Position numbers and translations under genes: made by a program
Notes under the pieces: generated by a model
Databases searched by the model: none
What the model was told of the DNA's origin: nothing
The model's input: only the letters and a program-made list of their open reading frames with translations
Shown: positions 1 through 7,869 of the stretch, one piece after another
Layout: each line of letters starts with the position of its first letter
Position numbering within the stretch: position 1 is the first letter of the stretch
DNA from: a virus
Taxonomy: Duplodnaviria; Heunggongvirae; Uroviricota; Caudoviricetes
IMG/VR virus record: IMGVR_UViG_2778261644_000009
Length of the DNA stretch: 7,869 nt
Direction: 5' to 3' (one strand)

Positions 1-12
1 AATTAGCTACCA

Positions 13-144
13 CCACAGAATTCTGTTAATCTTAACTTTTAAAGAGATTTGTACCCAAACAAAAGTCTGTTACCCCACCTATACAGAAAACTGTTAGATT
101 CAACCACAGAAAACTGTTAGACACCCCCACAGAATTCTGTTACC
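13..144. repeat. Array of five direct repeats (iterons), each with a 12-bp internal dyad ACAGAAnnCTGT followed by TA; putative initiator-binding sites of a replication origin
   Basis: Dyads at 15-26 (ACAGAATTCTGT), 59-70 (ACAAAAGTCTGT, degenerate), 83-94 and 106-117 (ACAGAAAACTGT), 129-140 (ACAGAATTCTGT); each preceded by a C-rich stretch; centres 20.5, 64.5, 88.5, 111.5, 134.5, i.e. 22-24 bp or multiples (about two helical turns). Window starts inside or just before the array, so it may extend upstream. Confidence 0.6.
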
Positions 145-148
145 TATT

Positions 149-206
149 AGATCATTTATTAAATTACTTATTAAATTATAATATTATATATTTATTTATA
201 TGATCT
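149..206. promoter_or_regulatory. AT-rich block, putative DNA-unwinding element of the origin
   Basis: About 46 bp of almost pure A/T (155-200) immediately after the iterons, flanked by inverted 6-mers AGATCA (149-154) and TGATCT (201-206), each with a GATC site; tandem TTATTAAATTA at 156-166 and 168-178. Confidence 0.4.
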
Positions 207-375
207 TTTGCCTTCCGGCGTTAAGCTTCACTCCCTGGCAAGCAGCCTTACTCCGCTACCTTTGGGCTTCGTGGCTGGCCCGTTCCGCTCACACCGAAAG
301 CAAAGCGTTACTTTCTTCGTGTAACTATCGTTGGCGGTAACGCCCACGAAGAAATACTATTGCGCTGTGCGCAGA
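207..375. other. GC-rich hairpin-dense island; candidate structured RNA or single-strand initiation/packaging signal, function unknown
   Basis: GC-rich in an AT-rich context, no ORF. Nested stem-loop: TTTCTTCGTG (312-321) pairs with CACGAAGAAA (345-354), enclosing GGCG-GTAA-CGCC (333-344, GNRA-type tetraloop). CTTCGTG also at 267-273. Small hairpin TGCGC-tgt-GCGCA at 361-373. Confidence 0.3.
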
Positions 376-437
376 AGAGTAATCACCTAACCAATCATAC
401 TGATTGCTTACGTGTTAACTCTATCTCTCTACCTCTT

Positions 438-595
438 AATTCCACTTCCTACATTCTGTAGTCGTGTAATTACTCGAAGAGAGAGCGGCTAAAGCTCAAT
501 TACACTCTGCTTTCCTCGTGTAATTTCACTAAGCCTCAATACAATTCCACTTCCTACATTTAATAACTCTCGTTATTCTCTGTAGTTGTGTAATT
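438..595. repeat. Two copies of a composite direct repeat: AATTCCACTTCCTACATT followed by CTGTAGTYGTGTAATT, the second copy with a 24-bp insertion
   Basis: Perfect 18-mer at 438-455 and 543-560. CTGTAGTCGTGTAATT at 456-471 and CTGTAGTTGTGTAATT at 580-595. YGTGTAAYT also at 318-326 and 517-525, and inverted (AATTACAC) at 498-505, giving mutually exclusive pairings 464-471/498-505 or 498-505/518-525. Confidence 0.6.
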
Positions 596-1107
596 GTTTT
601 CGGTGGAAAAGCCAGAGGCGACACCGAAAGAGAATTCTGATCTTATTAATCTTATCTATCTTAGTTAATCTTCTTACTTATCTTACTTACTTTATCTACT
701 TTATTATTAATAATAGCTTTATAAGCTCTCTGACGCAAGAAACAGAGTTCAGGAAGGGAATCACCTTAGAAAAGTGTTCTTTGCGTCATAATGTGTTTTA
801 TGAAGGATTCAGAGGTGTTTCATAACAGGAGTGTATAGAGGATACTTTAATTAATTAAATATAAGGGGTCTAAATGCTTCTCTAACAGCATTAAGCAGGG
901 TAGGGAATGGAAACGCATTGCCTACATATATAATCTCACTACAGGGCTTTACAGAGCGTTTTATAAAGTGACTCTCTATCTTATATCTACCATTACCTTT
1001 TCATATACCTAACAAATACAAAATAAGCCCCTTAAATAAGCCTCTGGCGAGCTAAACAACCTCTACATAAGAGAATGTATTGCTTTTATCAAAACTTCGT
1101 TAGAACG

Positions 1108-1127
1108 CGTTTTAGAGCGTTTTAGAC
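1108..1127. repeat. Perfect tandem duplication GCGTTTTAGA x2 (candidate operator) upstream of the early promoter
   Basis: GCGTTTTAGA at 1108-1117 and 1118-1127; related GCGTTTTATA at 956-965; adjacent 8-bp palindrome AACGCGTT at 1104-1111; about 90 bp upstream of the -35 at 1219. Confidence 0.5.
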
Positions 1128-1218
1128 AATAATGAAGAATAGCACCACACAGGAGAGCACGAATTGCTAAGAAAAAATGTAAGTGCATGAAAAAGATCAG
1201 ATTTTTTATGAAAAGGTA

Positions 1219-1247
1219 TTGACAAATGTTTCTTTATATGTAATAAT
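1219..1247 (+). promoter_or_regulatory. Sigma70-type promoter for the early operon
   Basis: TTGACA (1219-1224), 17-bp spacer, AATAAT (1242-1247); A/T-rich upstream; first gene starts at 1358 with SD AAGGAG (1346-1351). Confidence 0.5.
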
Positions 1248-1357
1248 AGGTATTAGAGGGACAGAAAACATTCTTCTCTAAATAATCAAAATCAATGCAC
1301 TTTGAAGCCGTCAGGCTTGCAAGGTGTTTTTTCTTTTAACTGAATAAGGAGTTTTTT

Positions 1358-1546: not shown

Positions 1547-1565
1547 AGAATAGAAGGAGAAAACT

Positions 1566-1733
1566 ATGAGCGAAACTAAGAAACCAATTCCGCGCACTTA
1601 CCTACACGTTGACCCTGAAATCTTCAAGGTTTTATTTGCTGAAGCCAAGAAAAGGCAAATTATGGTCAGTGATTTGATGTTAGAAATCATTACTGAAGCA
1701 GCAGAGAACATCAAACAAAAAAAGGGTAAGTGA
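1566..1733 (+). CDS. Putative ribbon-helix-helix (CopG/Arc/MetJ-like) DNA-binding protein, 55 aa; absent from the supplied ORF track
   Basis: ATG 1566 with SD AAGGAG (1554-1559); translation MSETKKPIPRTYLHVDPEIFKVLFAEAKKRQIMVSDLMLEIITEAAENIKQKKGK; strand-like RTYLHVDPEIF followed by two amphipathic helices, the RHH pattern; stop TGA 1731-1733. Confidence 0.5.
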   Translation: MSETKKPIPRTYLHVDPEIFKVLFAEAKKRQIMVSDLMLEIITEAAENIKQKKGK

Positions 1734-1784
1734 TCCTCATTCACTTTAGTAGCGCATTAAGCGTGATTTATAAGGAGATTTTTA

Positions 1785-2438
1785 ATGATTAATGAAGAAC
1801 AATTTGTAAAAGTTCCTATGTGGATTCTAAAAATAAGCCAAGTAAACGGGCATAAATTTACAGATAGTGCTAAAAACCTTTACTGCTATCTGAAAGGGTT
1901 TGATCGTGCATTTCCCTCTTACGCTAAGATAGGCGATGTTTTTGGCATAACACCAAGAGCAGCAGAGGAAAGGGTTAAGAAATTGCTCGAAATGGGATTA
2001 ATTATAAAAGATGCACGACCAGGAAGTTCTAATGTCTATCAAGTGGTAGATATTCCACAAGAAGAAGCTAGACAAGAAGCCCAGACACAACAAGAAGCTA
2101 CTGTTAAAGCTGTTCCTGATCAGCTTCCCCCTACGGAAGATAATAAAGAGTCTTCTTTTGATGTTCTTGATGATTGGGATGCGCCTTTGCCGTGGGAGAC
2201 GGAAGAAACACCTGTTTCATCAAGTGAAAAAGTAGCTAATGATAATGAGGAGGATGTGTTAGAGAATTTTGCCTCTCTTATCTGCCAGCAGAAACACACC
2301 AGAACAGGAGGGGCATCATTTATTGAGTTTGCAAATTCACTAGCTTATAGATACGGGCTAAAGCTACCAAATGGTATTGAGGCATATTTTTCTAAGCATT
2401 ACCCAAATGTGTATGATGACTTTGATATTCCATTTTAA
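1785..2438 (+). CDS. Putative replication initiator / replisome organiser: N-terminal winged helix-turn-helix, acidic linker, C-terminus ending DDFDIPF (SSB C-terminal-tip-like)
   Basis: SD AAGGAG (1772-1777) 7 nt before ATG. N-terminal pattern LYCYLKGF...PSYAKIGDVFGITPRAAEERVKKLLEMGLII typical of phage/plasmid initiator wHTH; acidic stretch PQEEARQEAQTQQEA...; last seven codons (2415-2435) encode D-D-F-D-I-P-F, cf. E. coli SSB ...DFDDDIPF. Confidence 0.8.
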   Translation: MINEEQFVKVPMWILKISQVNGHKFTDSAKNLYCYLKGFDRAFPSYAKIGDVFGITPRAAEERVKKLLEMGLIIKDARPGSSNVYQVVDIPQEEARQEAQTQQEATVKAVPDQLPPTEDNKESSFDVLDDWDAPLPWETEETPVSSSEKVANDNEEDVLENFASLICQQKHTRTGGASFIEFANSLAYRYGLKLPNGIEAYFSKHYPNVYDDFDIPF

Positions 2439-3632: not shown

Positions 3633-3661
3633 TTGACATTTCATCTATTGTATGTTAATAT
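3633..3661 (+). promoter_or_regulatory. Strong sigma70-type promoter with extended -10, upstream of the structural-looking gene block
   Basis: TTGACA (3633-3638), 17-bp spacer, TG at 3653-3654, TAATAT (3656-3661); a perfect TATAAT overlaps at 3659-3664; no ORF for about 280 nt downstream. Confidence 0.55.
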
Positions 3662-3852: not shown

Positions 3853-3884
3853 AAAAGGCGGCTTTAAATGCTGCCTTTTATTTT
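3853..3884 (+). terminator. Rho-independent terminator between the promoter at 3633 and the downstream genes
   Basis: Stem GGCGGC (3857-3862) / GCTGCC (3870-3875), one G-U pair, loop TTTAAAT, then TTTTATTTT (3876-3884); A-tract 3853-3856 upstream. Confidence 0.55.
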
Positions 3885-3946: not shown

Positions 3947-4159
3947 ATGTTGTTTTTAAATGATAAAGAGCAAATCATCAAGTATCGCGATGAAATGCTA
4001 AAGATCAATCCACAAATTACCGAAATGGTAGCTAAATACGCTGGGTGTTCTGTCGAAGAAGTGGAACGTTGTGTTGAAAAATATTTTTCTCCTTCTTCTC
4101 CGTCTACACCTTCCCTTAATGAATTAATCAAATTAAAAGCTAAGGAGATTACTAAATGA
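3947..4159 (+). CDS. Small hypothetical protein (70 aa)
   Basis: ATG 3947 with weak SD AAGG (3934-3937); stop TGA overlaps the next start (ATGA at 4156-4159). Confidence 0.5.
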   Translation: MLFLNDKEQIIKYRDEMLKINPQITEMVAKYAGCSVEEVERCVEKYFSPSSPSTPSLNELIKLKAKEITK

Positions 4160-4518
4160 TTATTGATTTAGACACTCTTTTTCCAAGTCGAAAGACTTTC
4201 ACAGATATTGTAAGTTATTGTACTGATCCGTTTGCCTCTGTAGAAAACAAGGTTTTTGCTTCTCTTCCTGCTGATGTTGAATGCGGAGACTTGATCACCA
4301 GCACTGGCGCTAAATATGAATCAGGAGATGATATCTATGTTGTTATGAGTGAATTTTTAACGGCTGGAGCAAATAAGCCTGTAGATGTTTTACGTAGCAA
4401 TGCTGGGCTTGTATGCATTAAAGCTGATGCGCTGAATGCTGTAAGTGAAGCAGCAAAAACAGCCTTAATTAAAAAAGGCTTCCAGCTTGAAGGCTTTAAT
4501 ACGGTTTTCACTTCTTAA
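4156..4518 (+). CDS. Hypothetical protein (120 aa); possible small virion accessory (decoration/scaffold-like) by position only
   Basis: SD AAGGAG (4142-4147) 8 nt before ATG 4156; coupled to the upstream gene; immediately precedes the 342-aa gene. No diagnostic motif. Confidence 0.7.
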   Translation: MIIDLDTLFPSRKTFTDIVSYCTDPFASVENKVFASLPADVECGDLITSTGAKYESGDDIYVVMSEFLTAGANKPVDVLRSNAGLVCIKADALNAVSEAAKTALIKKGFQLEGFNTVFTS

Positions 4519-4536
4519 TAAAAGGAATAATAATAA

Positions 4537-5565
4537 ATGATTCTAGGTAATGATTACGTTGATTTAGCTCCTCTGTTCTCTGCGCATAGCACTAGAAACT
4601 ATCTGCTTTCTACTCTCGACTTCACTGATCCGGTGGGCGTTAGTTCTCATAAAGTAGCTGTTTCCCAGCTTGTCGAAAGCAACGAATCTCTGTTCAACAA
4701 AGAAACCTCTCGTTTCTCTTCTGAACACAACGTTACTAAGCGAGAACAAGGTAAAGAATGGCTGATCGAGATCCCTTACTTCCTGCGTGAAGATGTGATC
4801 CGTCCTTCTGATGTTCAAGGCAAACGTAAACCTGGCACTGATTTCCAGGAAACACTCACTGATATCTACGCGGAATATGTTGCTAAACACAATGTTGCAT
4901 TCCAGCGTACAAAAGAGAGCGTGTTGGCGGCTTCTTTGTTCTCTGGCAAAACTTACACGCCTAAAACTGATGATGTTCTTATCGAATGGGGCAAGCTGTT
5001 TAACGTATCAGCTATGAAAGCCACTGTGAACGCTTCCAGCACTGACACCACGAAGATTTTTAAAGAATTTGATCAGATTGCTACTGACATTATCGAAAAA
5101 GCACAAAGCCAGGCGGCTGCTGTAGAGCGTATTGTTGTTTTCTGTAAGCCGGAAGCATTCTCTGCAATTCGATTCTCTGCGGGTATGGCAAACGCATTCC
5201 AGTATGTAAGCCCACTGGAAGAAGGGAACGTTGTGTACCAGCGTCGTGACCTGCTACCGGGGGTGACAGCGTTCACTATTCCAGGAACTAACATTGATGT
5301 TATTAAACTGGTAGATCCGCTACACCTTGCACATATGACCGCAGACGCTGTAGCGATTCCGAGGTTTGCTAAGGGGGCAGGTGTTTATGCCAACATCTTC
5401 GGGGCGGCTTCCAGCACCTTTGAACTGATTAATACCGCTCCTGCTGAGGTTTATAGCTATAGCTATGAATCTTCTCGTGGTGATGCTGTTAACGTTGTTA
5501 CAGAGAATAGCCAGATGGTTGTAAACCACGGCGTTGGCTTCTCCGTTCAAATCACTGTGAAATAA
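4537..5565 (+). CDS. Highly expressed 342-aa protein; putative major structural (capsid-like) protein, assignment tentative
   Basis: ATG 4537 after AAAGGA; codon usage visibly different from the AT-rich early genes (CTG, CGT, GGT/GGC, TCT, AAA, GAA, as in highly expressed enterobacterial genes); no signal peptide or nucleotide-binding motif; followed by the strongest terminator in the window. Confidence 0.85.
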   Translation: MILGNDYVDLAPLFSAHSTRNYLLSTLDFTDPVGVSSHKVAVSQLVESNESLFNKETSRFSSEHNVTKREQGKEWLIEIPYFLREDVIRPSDVQGKRKPGTDFQETLTDIYAEYVAKHNVAFQRTKESVLAASLFSGKTYTPKTDDVLIEWGKLFNVSAMKATVNASSTDTTKIFKEFDQIATDIIEKAQSQAAAVERIVVFCKPEAFSAIRFSAGMANAFQYVSPLEEGNVVYQRRDLLPGVTAFTIPGTNIDVIKLVDPLHLAHMTADAVAIPRFAKGAGVYANIFGAASSTFELINTAPAEVYSYSYESSRGDAVNVVTENSQMVVNHGVGFSVQITVK

Positions 5566-5583
5566 TATTTTAACGTGTAATAG

Positions 5584-5618
5584 AGGCGTGGCGTGTATTC
5601 ACGCTTCGCCTTTTTTTT
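5584..5618 (+). terminator. Strong rho-independent terminator after the 342-aa gene
   Basis: GC-rich stem 5584-5595 / 5600-5610 (about 11 bp, one bulge, two G-U pairs), loop TATT, then T8 (5611-5618). Confidence 0.75.
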
Positions 5619-5652: not shown

Positions 5653-5856
5653 ATGGAAGTGATTCTGAAATCAAAAAATGGTGTACACGTACATTTAGAT
5701 GCTAATGATTCTAGAGGCTTGTTAAATCTGAAATATCTCTGTTCTCTTTTAGATGTTCCATATGAAGGAGTAAAAGCCCGTATGTTCAGACTAAACGAGA
5801 GTATTGATCAGGCTCTACACCATTTCTTAAGTAAAGAAGGTGGTAAAAATGATTAA
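5653..5856 (+). CDS. Small hypothetical protein (67 aa)
   Basis: ATG 5653 with SD GAGGTG (5639-5644) 8 nt upstream; stop 14 nt before the next gene. Confidence 0.55.
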   Translation: MEVILKSKNGVHVHLDANDSRGLLNLKYLCSLLDVPYEGVKARMFRLNESIDQALHHFLSKEGGKND

Positions 5857-5870
5857 TAAGGGGATTTTAA

Positions 5871-7703
5871 ATGTTAGAAATTAACACTTCTAAAATTAAG
5901 AACACAGTTACATTTAGTGTAGATAAAGACAGCTTGAAAAAAGCGAAAGACTCTATTACAGGCTTAAAGGAATTCGCCGAAAATATCAAGCCAGCTAAGC
6001 TGAGATTTGATAGTGTCACTAAAGGCTATAAGAAAGCACAAAGTGAAGTAGACAAGATTGCTCAACAGAAAGCTAAAACAGAAAAACAAAATCAAAGAGC
6101 ACAAGCTGCCGCAGCAAGAGCACAGGCAAGGCAACAGCAACAAATAGCAGCACGTAAAGAGAAAGCAGAATTAAAGCTCCTTGATGTATCAAGCTCTATC
6201 AGTGCAATGCACCGTCTCTCTGTAGCTGAACAATACAAAGCTATTGCACAGGCTAGAGAGATAGCAAAACAATATGAGCAAGGGGCTATCTCGCTTGCAC
6301 GTATGAATAGCCAAATGAAACGCCTACAACAGCAACAACGTAAGATTAATGGCAACAGAAAAGCTCAATTAGCCCCCGTTAAGGGAGGAGGATCAGGGAA
6401 TGCCGCCACTATGGGCGCTCTGTTATTTGGAGGCGCTACAGCGGCTGCTGGCGTGATGGCTGTTAGTAAAACCTCTGAATTTATGGCTAATAGCTTTGCT
6501 AACGCAGATACCCAAGGGGAGCTAATTCAACGTGCCAAGCTGGGCGGTGTAGACGTTAACCAGATGTATAATATTACAGAATGGGCGTATAGAAACGGCG
6601 TTGACTCTATGATGGGTGATCAAGGGGCTAGGAAATACCTGGATCAGATGAAAGATGTTAGGGAACGTGCCGCAAAATCCTACAGTGAAGCTGAATTGGT
6701 GAAAGATAAGAAAACCGGAAAATCTGAATGGAAAGGCGGTGATAACGCTATTAATGAACTTCTAAACATCGGTGTTATTAACAAAAGCGACCTTAAAAAA
6801 TTTGCTGATAATCCGGCTGGATTAATTTCTAAGGCTGTTAATGGAATGATGAAAAAAGGGTTTTCAGACTCCCAAATTGGACAACGTTTAGAAGACCTGG
6901 GCGATGATTTGATGCTTACATCAAAATATTGGCAACGTTCCGTTAAAGATGTACAAGAAAGTATTAATCAGCAAAAAGCCTCTGGAAAATGGCTAACAGA
7001 AACACAGCAAGACTCTATTGTTAAATTCAGAGAACTAAACAGACAGCTTTCACAGCTTTCTGATGCAAGACAAGTAGCATTCGTAGACGGCTTTATGAAA
7101 TCTCTCGATCCAAAAGTAACGGAAGAGTTTATGAAAAACCTTTCTAATCTCACTCCGTATTTTACGAAACTAGGGGAAGCTGTAGGAAGTCTCTTTGAGG
7201 CTATTATGAAGCTTGTAAACTGGTTTAATCGTAATGATGATAAGACAGATGCTATTCAGAAAAATTTAGGTGATGCACCGCCATTAAGCAATGAAGGGAT
7301 GAAACAGCATCTTTCTAATCTCGTTCCTGACCAATATAAAGGCGCTGGAACTGCAACAACTGCACCTGATAATAGTCATTCTCTCTTTAATACAATTAAG
7401 GGATTGCTTTTTGATGATAATTCTTCTGTGTCAGATGTAAAAATGTCAGTTAGTGAAGCACCGATAACCAATCTCAAACAGGGTGCTTTAAATAATCTTG
7501 CAATGACAACTCCGGCTTATAATTTATCTCCTGTGTTTAATCTGAATCCAACGTTTGAAGTGGTAACAGAGGTTCCTCTTACTATTAATTCTGACACATC
7601 AAGATTAAGCGATTATGTGGATTTTACAGCGAGAGCAAGTCGGGATAGCTTCTTGAAATCATTAACATTAACCAGCTTATCAGGACAATCCAACGGCGGG
7701 TAA
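5871..7703 (+). CDS. Large coiled-coil protein (610 aa) with internal Gly/Ala-rich hydrophobic segment; tape-measure-like or ejection/pilot-type structural protein (tentative)
   Basis: ATG 5871 after AAGGGGA; N-terminal 160 aa rich in K/Q/A/R heptad-like sequence (KAKTEKQNQRAQAAAARAQARQQQQIAARKEKAELK); then GGGSGNAATMGALLFGGATAAAGVMAV; no N-terminal signal peptide, no HUH or Walker motifs. Confidence 0.85.
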   Translation: MLEINTSKIKNTVTFSVDKDSLKKAKDSITGLKEFAENIKPAKLRFDSVTKGYKKAQSEVDKIAQQKAKTEKQNQRAQAAAARAQARQQQQIAARKEKAELKLLDVSSSISAMHRLSVAEQYKAIAQAREIAKQYEQGAISLARMNSQMKRLQQQQRKINGNRKAQLAPVKGGGSGNAATMGALLFGGATAAAGVMAVSKTSEFMANSFANADTQGELIQRAKLGGVDVNQMYNITEWAYRNGVDSMMGDQGARKYLDQMKDVRERAAKSYSEAELVKDKKTGKSEWKGGDNAINELLNIGVINKSDLKKFADNPAGLISKAVNGMMKKGFSDSQIGQRLEDLGDDLMLTSKYWQRSVKDVQESINQQKASGKWLTETQQDSIVKFRELNRQLSQLSDARQVAFVDGFMKSLDPKVTEEFMKNLSNLTPYFTKLGEAVGSLFEAIMKLVNWFNRNDDKTDAIQKNLGDAPPLSNEGMKQHLSNLVPDQYKGAGTATTAPDNSHSLFNTIKGLLFDDNSSVSDVKMSVSEAPITNLKQGALNNLAMTTPAYNLSPVFNLNPTFEVVTEVPLTINSDTSRLSDYVDFTARASRDSFLKSLTLTSLSGQSNGG

Positions 7704-7737: not shown

Positions 7738-7869
<132 letters not shown>

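Follow-up and report, generated by a model that had tools for sequence, protein, structure and literature searches.

Described phage satellites either reshape the capsid protein of their helper, as do phage-inducible chromosomal islands (PICIs), P4 and the PICI-like elements (PLEs), or bring along a whole head module, as do the capsid-forming PICIs (cf-PICIs). Here we analyze a stretch of 7,869 nucleotides from the IMG/VR virus record IMGVR_UViG_2778261644_000009 (hereafter, the window, to which all coordinates refer unless stated otherwise) that makes up most of an E. coli chromosomal integrative island of 11-12 kb flanked by attachment (att) sites, and in which a gene for a protein of 120 amino acids (aa) directly precedes a gene for a 342-aa capsid protein. 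We estimate at roughly 0.6 the probability that the two genes constitute the shell module of a phage satellite, one that depends on a helper but provides the shell proteins itself, the presumed helper being, most likely, a large virulent myovirus of the phi92 or phAPEC8 type (Stephanstirmvirinae). If this is true, the element, bringing only shell proteins and a tail core, would be an intermediate between the two known strategies, and poses the question of how a capsid protein about 20% identical to that of the helper could still use the portal, scaffold, protease and terminase of the helper.

The participation of a satellite-encoded capsid homologue in a shell is known from the Staphylococcus aureus pathogenicity island (SaPI) SaPIbov5, where Ccm, a protein with a capsid fold that is 23% identical to the capsid protein of the helper phi12, is incorporated into small capsids, with the helper capsid protein still required. 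Likened by description, SaPIbov5 and the island each have a single HK97-fold capsid homologue about 20-23% identical to that of the helper and would take the other head functions from the helper; unlike the island, SaPIbov5 lacks both a decoration partner and tail genes, is a Gram-positive element with a temperate cos siphovirus as the helper, and carries the standard SaPI regulation, replication and packaging modules. Among Gram-negative PICIs, PmCI172, which forms small capsids, and EcCICFT073 each encode a capsid homologue, and proteobacterial PICIs have a ‘capsid morphogenesis’ or ‘capsidPE’ gene among their five core components; a 2026 study lists 356 proteins of the PF03864 type in published PICIs. 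The island shares with this group (PmCI172, EcCICFT073 and SatelliteFinder type A) the size of about 9.5-12 kb, the enterobacterial setting, the integrase, the PF03864-type capsid homologue and the lack of portal and large terminase, the capsid likeness being one of PF03864 profile type. Set beside the PICI definition of SatelliteFinder, the island has the integrase and the capsidPE gene (PF03864), has no recognized small terminase or Rpp, and carries tape-measure and distal tail (Dit)-like genes, which that definition forbids. Searches of Pfam, PHROGs and NCBIfam detected no AlpA, MerR or Stl regulator and no primase-replicase, the nearest candidate being a 217-aa helix-turn-helix (HTH) protein, and divergent versions are possible. 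Unlike in PICIs, the integrase lies at the far end of the island on the opposite strand, and the presumed helper is a virulent myovirus of about 150 kb, not a temperate phage. Elements of this kind would escape the satellite finders now in use, since these forbid tail genes and demand AlpA, primase and TerS.

The cf-PICIs resemble the island in that their capsids are built from their own proteins, with the rest coming from the helper, as proposed here, and in that their capsid lineages are separate from those of phages. They differ in encoding the full head and packaging set (PF05065 capsid protein, portal, protease, adaptors, HNH, TerS and TerL), so that only tails are stolen; of that set, no portal, prohead protease, head-tail adaptor or connector, TerS or TerL was found between the att sites of the island. 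P4 (with Psu and Sid) and PLE (with TcaP) are likewise small, about 11-18 kb; small capsids are known there and proposed here, P4 supplies the decorating protein Psu, and PLE parasitizes the virulent myovirus ICP1, whose capsid protein is a close structural match to the model of the 342-aa protein. The P4 and PLE shells, however, consist of helper capsid protein redirected by external scaffolds, unlike the shell proposed for the island. Neither the ten main open reading frames (ORFs) of the window nor the five ORFs of the island outside it (three in the left flank, the Dit-like gene and the integrase) have Pfam, PHROG or NCBIfam matches to Psu, Sid, Delta, alpha primase or Epsilon, and TcaP, Sid, Psu or any other P4 or PLE family marker was not found in the island.

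Among phages, the pairs phi92 gp123-gp124, lambda gpD-gpE and that of phiTE show the same arrangement as the island, namely, a decoration gene of about 120-130 aa directly before a gpE-family capsid gene of about 335-345 aa, followed by a terminator; the capsid fold is the same, and there, too, the capsid gene is the most codon-adapted one. The differences are that the island capsid protein is only about 20-22% identical to those of the phages, that the decoration likeness is seen at the profile level only, and that the island pair stands outside a head module, with no terminase, portal or protease ahead of it. A lone capsid homologue in a satellite is already known; what is new is a minimal shell module together with a tape-measure gene in a PICI-like satellite apparently tied to virulent phi92-type phages. 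In the literature, our coverage of which is incomplete, we found no publication on a satellite of Stephanstirmvirinae, phi92 or phAPEC8, on the present island, or on any island at thrW; a paper on a jumbo-phage island and a preprint on small HK97 viruses turned out to be unrelated.

The capsid operon

The operon and its predicted signals comprise the following features:
3633-3661, plus strand: putative sigma-70-like promoter, TTGACA-17-TAATAT with an upstream TG (10/12 matches)
3853-3884, plus strand: terminator-like hairpin and U-tract within the leader, read from the sequence, with a putative regulatory role
3947-4159, plus strand: 70-aa ORF from the ORF list, first gene of the capsid operon
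4156-4518, plus strand: 120-aa ORF with an ATG start, probable head decoration (cement) protein, the partner of the capsid protein
4537-5565, plus strand: 342-aa ORF, lambda gpE-family major capsid protein (HK97 fold)
5582-5618, plus strand: intrinsic terminator (hairpin and T-run) closing the capsid operon

The 342-aa protein matches PF03864 (Phage_cap_E) with 54.9 bits against a cut-off of 22.9, its residues 19-341 covering profile positions 14-329 of 329, and it matches phrog_29 (major head protein) as well. A profile built from 27 homologues has as its best solved-structure sequence phi92 gp124 (E 2.9e-18), with other phage capsid proteins next. The AlphaFold2 model computed from the homologue alignment (predicted local distance difference test score, pLDDT, 74.6; predicted TM-score, pTM, 0.74) yields 260 Foldseek matches in the PDB at E <= 0.001, and those at the top are all capsid proteins of tailed phages, namely, phiTE, Bas63, ICP1 (from PLE capsids), Sf14, YSD1, Chi and lambda, with E values down to 6.6e-18 and TM-scores of 0.6-0.7. 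By profile and model, then, this is a lambda gpE-family major capsid protein with the HK97 fold and without the N-terminal delta domain. A sequence-only reading of the window had taken the 342-aa product for a major virion protein; the structural comparison bears this out and gives no non-capsid fold.

The codon adaptation index (CAI), calculated with the Sharp-Li E. coli weights, is 0.46 for the 342-aa gene, where the other ten ORFs, by their codon usage, would predict 0.263 +/- 0.017 (z = 11.7), and the G+C content climbs from 0.31-0.38 to 0.45-0.47 over this gene. For the 120-aa gene, the CAI is 0.30, a shift that is not significant (z = 1.4), so that the high expression ascribed to both genes by the sequence-only reading is supported for the capsid gene only. 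Both ORFs are real genes under purifying selection: among E. coli copies, the 342-aa gene has a ratio of nonsynonymous to synonymous substitution rates (dN/dS) of 0.11-0.16 and the 120-aa gene one of 0.12-0.22, and full-length homologues of both proteins exist in many Enterobacterales. For all five genes of the module, dN/dS among the E. coli copies lies at 0-0.2.

A single operon, preceded by a long leader and closed by a strong terminator, comprises the 70-aa, 120-aa and capsid genes. The start of the 120-aa ORF overlaps the stop of the 70-aa ORF by ATGA, and a Shine-Dalgarno-like motif precedes both the 120-aa and the 342-aa ORFs. The extent of the pair with its terminator, 4156-5618, stands as originally read: the terminator, with its stem at 5583-5607 (hairpin of -19.8 kcal/mol) and a run of eight T behind it, ends at 5618. 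A hairpin with a U-tract follows the capsid gene also in the Klebsiella and Serratia relatives of the island and in the Stephanstirmvirinae coliphage muut, with different sequences. The untranslated leader of about 290 nt is headed by the putative promoter at 3633-3661, the sequence of which is kept in two E. coli islands (L001 and L002). The leader hairpin at 3853-3884 (RNAfold, -19.3 kcal/mol), about 190 nt past the promoter and about 60 nt before the 70-aa gene, may be a point of attenuation or antitermination, or else the 3' end of an RNA of about 220 nt; Rfam has no family match anywhere in the window, leader included. The leaders in Klebsiella and Serratia are similarly long, 350-570 nt, and align poorly to that of E. 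coli. Visual inspection made evident no late-promoter motif independent of σ70 and common to the island and the phage; like the island promoter, the upstream regions of muut resemble sigma-70 sites.

The 120-aa protein is probably a head decoration (cement) protein, a distant relative of phi92 gp123. An exhaustive profile search retrieved two full-length remote relatives, P0154 (E 5e-6) and P0155 (E 2e-5), which match phrog_2680 ‘head decoration’ (E 1.7e-5 and 6.9e-4, respectively), the family to which the muut decoration protein belongs (E 3e-39). This phage decoration family (PF26074, phrog_2680) includes phi92 gp123 and the phiTE head stabilization/decoration protein, both of which are present in solved capsids. 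In hhalign comparisons, the family of the 120-aa protein aligns with the P0154 group at a probability of 99%. The C-terminal ..VFTS is common to the 120-aa protein and the muut decoration protein, and the 3' ends of the two genes share 16 identical nucleotides. In 26/26 loci examined, the capsid gene is preceded, at a distance of 15-54 nt, by a gene of the 120-aa type, and the P0154 gene lies 19 nt upstream of a PF03864 capsid gene. Furthermore, the 120-aa and capsid proteins diverge in step, at 56 and 57% identity, respectively, to the Klebsiella copies and at 36 and 37% to those of Serratia, as expected of interacting partners.

Several observations weigh against this assignment. The 120-aa protein has no significant match in Pfam, PHROGs, NCBIfam, PADLOC or the PDB sequences, and neither it nor 15 members of its family, which is limited to Enterobacterales islands, match any Pfam or PHROG profile at E <= 0.1. 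The AlphaFold2 model is poor (pLDDT 51), so that fold searches with it can be merely suggestive, and Foldseek against BFVD found nothing significant. The probabilities in hhalign are 63% for the P0154 group against the phage decoration family and 73% for the merged 120-aa family against the latter (E 3e-5, 102 collinear columns), both below the usual acceptance level, and the single 120-aa sequence against the phage decoration protein was negative, the signal arising only between families. Given the lack of a direct family match, the poor model and the profile-profile probabilities of merely 63-73%, together with the fact that scaffolds are often encoded just upstream of capsid genes, the 120-aa protein might be associated with the capsid in another capacity, for example, as a scaffold, assembly chaperone or determinant of size, which we consider rather unlikely. 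Several weak, concordant lines of evidence, sub-threshold or transitive, suggest decoration, and the model, poor as it is, consists mainly of beta-strands. Hence the lambda D-E-like order proposed in the sequence-only reading holds for the gpE-family capsid gene and is probable, on moderate evidence, for its upstream partner, which has no sequence match to the lambda gpD family PF02924.

The island and its distribution

The att repeats lie only about 2.3 kb to the left and about 2.2 kb to the right of the window. In one E. coli genome, a 24-bp repeat at tRNA-Thr bounds 12.2 kb; in another, a 52-bp repeat inside srsR bounds 12.0 kb, IS3 included. Housekeeping genes flank the island on both sides, with no further phage genes. 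At the left end, about 2.3 kb of mostly gene-free DNA is followed by two sets of iterons, then a promoter and small genes including that of the 217-aa HTH protein, then the second promoter with the leader of the capsid operon. To the right of the tape-measure gene come a gene for a 237-aa Dit-like tail protein (PF21821, 3.9e-29) and, at the right end of the island and in the opposite orientation, that of a 425-aa tyrosine integrase.

Searches of Pfam and PHROGs revealed nothing similar to a portal, a protease or scaffold-protease, or a terminase between the att sites, and no head-completion, sheath, tube or lysis genes were recognized in the island. The sequence-only reading had noted the lack of portal, protease, scaffold and terminase between the late promoter and the pair, and had left it open whether these are encoded outside the window or borrowed from a helper. 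The lack extends to the whole island: none is recognized anywhere between the att sites, and the island ends on both sides without head genes, with an integrase but no terminase, portal or complete head module adjacent, which favors the helper. The same reading had also considered an element making only shell components; this is not the case because the element also has genes for a homologue of the tape-measure protein and, in E. coli, for a Dit-like protein.

Sequences matching the window are present in 742 of the 5,426 complete E. coli genomes, in up to 4 places per genome, and 195 of the 5,426 hold at least 80% of it at 93-95% identity. Islands in Klebsiella pneumoniae and Serratia share the core, namely, genes for proteins of 66-74 aa and 119-126 aa, the capsid protein, a protein of 62-64 aa and a tape-measure-like protein of 616-629 aa, as well as the integrase (400 and 554 aa in these two genera), and the gene set and order are alike in the three genera. 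The same cargo occupies different chromosomal sites, inside srsR and beside tRNA-Thr in E. coli (L001, L002) and elsewhere in Klebsiella and Serratia (L006-L009). The Dit-like gene is confined to E. coli; at their left ends, the islands of Klebsiella and Serratia encode an additional small tyrosine recombinase of 183-205 aa, and that of Klebsiella also carries a Dam methylase. With dN/dS of 0.0-0.2, the same core and integrase in Klebsiella and Serratia, and this spread in E. coli, the island is not decaying.

Links to Stephanstirmvirinae phages

Three genes of the window bear on the relationship with phages:
1566-1733, plus strand: 55-aa gene, the protein identical to muut gp153 (megablast, tblastn)
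1785-2438, plus strand: 217-aa HTH protein resembling replication initiators (HTH_36, phrog_270)
5871-7703, plus strand: 610-aa tail tape-measure homologue (phrog_16051, 1.7e-53)

Window positions 1554-2138 match the virulent Stephanstirmvirinae coliphages muut, inny, Mt1B1_P17 and BI-EHEC, with genomes of about 146-151 kb, at 90-99% identity. Comparison of the island with the whole muut genome showed that the 55-aa protein is 100% identical to muut gp153 over 55 aa (tblastn), with 99.6% identity of the DNA over 239 nt, and that the N-terminal part of muut gp154, a replication-initiator/endonuclease fusion that matches replication-initiator PHROGs, shares 41% identity with the 217-aa protein over 110 aa; within the 217-aa gene, 67 nt match the gp154 gene at 94%. 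These matches indicate recent recombination between the island and the phage lineage, as judged by sequence. In the structural region, the tape-measure homologue shares 28% identity with muut gp231 over 373 aa, rising to 53% within its first 66 aa; at the DNA level, the initial 87 nt of its gene are 86% identical to muut, and the Dit-like protein is 60% identical to muut gp230. Across 50,697 phage records, the best matches of the tape-measure and Dit-like proteins are all in Stephanstirmvirinae, to which the tape-measure homologue of the Klebsiella island is likewise closest. By contrast with these tail proteins, no phage capsid protein in the same records is more than 26.5% identical to the 342-aa protein, which is only 20-22% identical to that of muut. 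Among proteins of solved structure, the best sequence matches of the capsid and 120-aa families are phi92 gp124 and gp123. The sequence comparisons thus portray the capsid lineage of the island as old and distinct, and the tail-core and early genes as exchanged more recently.

The head module of muut runs from terminase through portal, protease-like gp3, helical gp2 and decoration protein gp1 (130 aa) to the capsid gene and a terminator, and the capsid and decoration genes have the highest CAI values in the phage, 0.56-0.58, compared to about 0.25 for the tape-measure and terminase genes. Judged by gene order and sequence, the island cassette is a stripped-down copy of this layout. Outside the window, in the left arm, a 46-nt non-coding stretch (L002:6854-6899) is 91-93% identical in 62 phage records, all from the group with genomes of about 145-150 kb (Justusliebigvirus, Phapecoctavirus and relatives), where the phage copy lies in a 1.8-kb gene-free region and, in several records, about 300 bp from the end of the deposited sequence. 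This stretch could, perhaps, be a shared packaging (pac) or replication (ori) site.

A probable helper-dependent satellite and the alternatives

Gene content and sequence sharing with phages suggest the following scenario. On infection by the helper, most likely a phi92- or phAPEC8-type phage, the island would excise and replicate, and would produce the capsid and decoration proteins in bulk. These would assemble on the portal and scaffold of the helper into a capsid sized for about 11-12 kb, a range similar to that of P4, the 11.6-kb genome of which is packaged in T=4 capsids. The helper terminase would fill the small capsid with island DNA, and the capsid would join helper tails built around the tape-measure protein of the island (and, in E. 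coli, the Dit-like protein), with the protease, connectors, remaining tail parts and lysis functions all provided by the helper. A broader version of this scenario is more tentative, somewhat short of an even chance: a widespread family of Enterobacterales satellites would parasitize phi92- and phAPEC8-type myoviruses with their own capsid and decoration proteins, perhaps a 70-aa mini-scaffold, tails seeded by their own tape-measure protein, and a cis packaging site copied from the phage instead of a satellite terminase subunit, with the helper providing portal, protease, terminase and all other tail parts, as an E. coli counterpart of the PLE-ICP1 system.

Several points weigh against the satellite interpretation. 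Neither experiments nor viromes provide evidence that the island is excised, packaged or transferred; the IMG/VR contigs that carry the capsid gene are prophage-style predictions of 19-76 kb, and the IMG/VR scan found no virion-type contigs of about 11 kb, so that no evidence of encapsidation comes from that scan. Because the capsid identity is only about 20-22%, compatibility with the portal, scaffold and protease of the helper is uncertain. No small-terminase or Rpp-like gene for redirecting packaging is recognized in the island; packaging through mimicry of a cis site is speculative, and a very divergent packaging factor is possible because many small island proteins have no detectable homologues. 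Finally, for the island of Klebsiella, no phage record gives a recent DNA match.

In a variant of the satellite interpretation, the 342-aa protein, similarly to Ccm, would co-assemble with the helper capsid protein, for example, at the vertices or as bulk on a nucleus made by the helper, and so force the formation of small capsids. The identity of the 342-aa protein to the presumed helper capsid protein is indeed similar to the 23% of Ccm, and PmCI172 and EcCICFT073 carry lone capsid homologues, ‘capsidPE’ being a core gene of E. coli PICIs; yet a dedicated, co-evolving decoration gene and a capsid gene with very high codon adaptation suggest a lattice made mostly of island protein, and decoration proteins, which bind between capsomers, would not be needed in a role confined to the vertices. 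None of these arguments is decisive, and we rate this variant as unlikely compared with a shell built by the island itself. Still less probable, in our estimate, is that the structural homologues act as decoys that poison the assembly of infecting Stephanstirmvirinae, the island itself not being packaged. Interference with helper assembly is common among satellites, all the structural homologues match one phage group, high expression of a capsid homologue would suit a competitor, and a gene for packaging specificity was not found. However, a capsid protein of about 20% identity would be a poor dominant-negative partner, no PADLOC defense model reached significance in the island, and the intact att sites, integrase, replication module and iterons, along with the varied insertion sites in several genera, point to a moving, replicating element; furthermore, interference and transfer can coexist. 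The RefSeq annotation, which labels the island genes as phage genes, and the placement of the region in prophage-like IMG/VR predictions would fit a prophage remnant, or an ordinary prophage head module with the other genes just outside the window. We reject this as very improbable, given att repeats spaced at about 12 kb, the housekeeping flanks devoid of further phage genes, the gene set and order conserved in three genera, the purifying selection and the strong codon adaptation of the capsid gene.

If a shell module of a helper-dependent satellite is indeed what the pair represents, a satellite directed against virulent phages is present, at least in part, in about one in seven complete E. 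coli genomes. The targeted phages (phi92, phAPEC8 and relatives) are often proposed for therapy and biocontrol, so that phage efficacy and gene transfer are possibly affected.

Other genes and features

Two features on the plus strand complete the map of the window:
3-142, plus strand: five iterons of about 23 nt with the core CCACAGAATTCTGTTA, a candidate replication origin or cis-acting site
5653-5856, plus strand: 67-aa ORF from the ORF list, between the capsid and tape-measure genes

The 70-aa gene at the head of the operon is under purifying selection in E. coli (dN/dS 0.08-0.12). Its product aligns co-terminally with the last ~66 residues of the helical muut gp2, the gene for which lies between the protease and decoration genes, that is, in the scaffold position; the Smith-Waterman score is 55, compared to 31 +/- 5 for shuffled sequences, 0.15% of which reach 55, and the counterparts from Klebsiella and Serratia bear little or no resemblance to gp2. 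The 70-aa protein may, conceivably, be a small scaffold-type protein, a mini-scaffold. The likeness recalls CpmB of SaPIs, which mimics the capsid-binding end of the scaffold of the helper. The 67-aa protein, possibly an HTH protein judging by its sequence, is invariant among three E. coli islands (dN 0, dS 0.16-0.29), and a gene of 62-64 aa occupies the matching position in the Klebsiella and Serratia islands.

A second iteron array, with six units of about 22 nt (TAGGTCACTGTGAACTAGGGGG), lies just left of the window, and the two arrays together span L002:7781-8136 and window positions 3-142. Neither motif was found in phage muut, and, therefore, an origin common to the island and the phage by way of the iterons is not supported. 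Window positions 1-1357 comprise about 1.3 kb without a convincing ORF, with repeats such as 438-455/543-560, and the sole feature that stands out there is a strong promoter-like site at 1219-1247; together with about 2.3 kb farther left, this ORF-poor, repeat-containing and unannotated DNA accounts for about a quarter of the island. At the other end of the window, the final ~130 nt (7740-7869) degenerate into long A runs relative to two reference islands, in which the Dit-like gene starts here, with the non-A bases progressively replaced and one homopolymer gaining a base. This decay resembles a read-end or contig-end artifact, and the end of the window is, accordingly, not to be trusted.

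A second, more distant type of island was observed at loci L033-L035 (about 8001-9378), where genes for a 113-aa decoration-like protein, a PF03864 capsid protein of 337-338 aa and a 59-aa protein lie opposite a divergent block encoding a 720-aa TMP_3 protein and a member of the phiTE_211 family. The chromosomal neighbors of these loci (Rap1a, Sua5/YciO and PHP) are the same as those of the Serratia island, and the cassette may define a broader set of elements tied to rV5- and phiTE-like phages.

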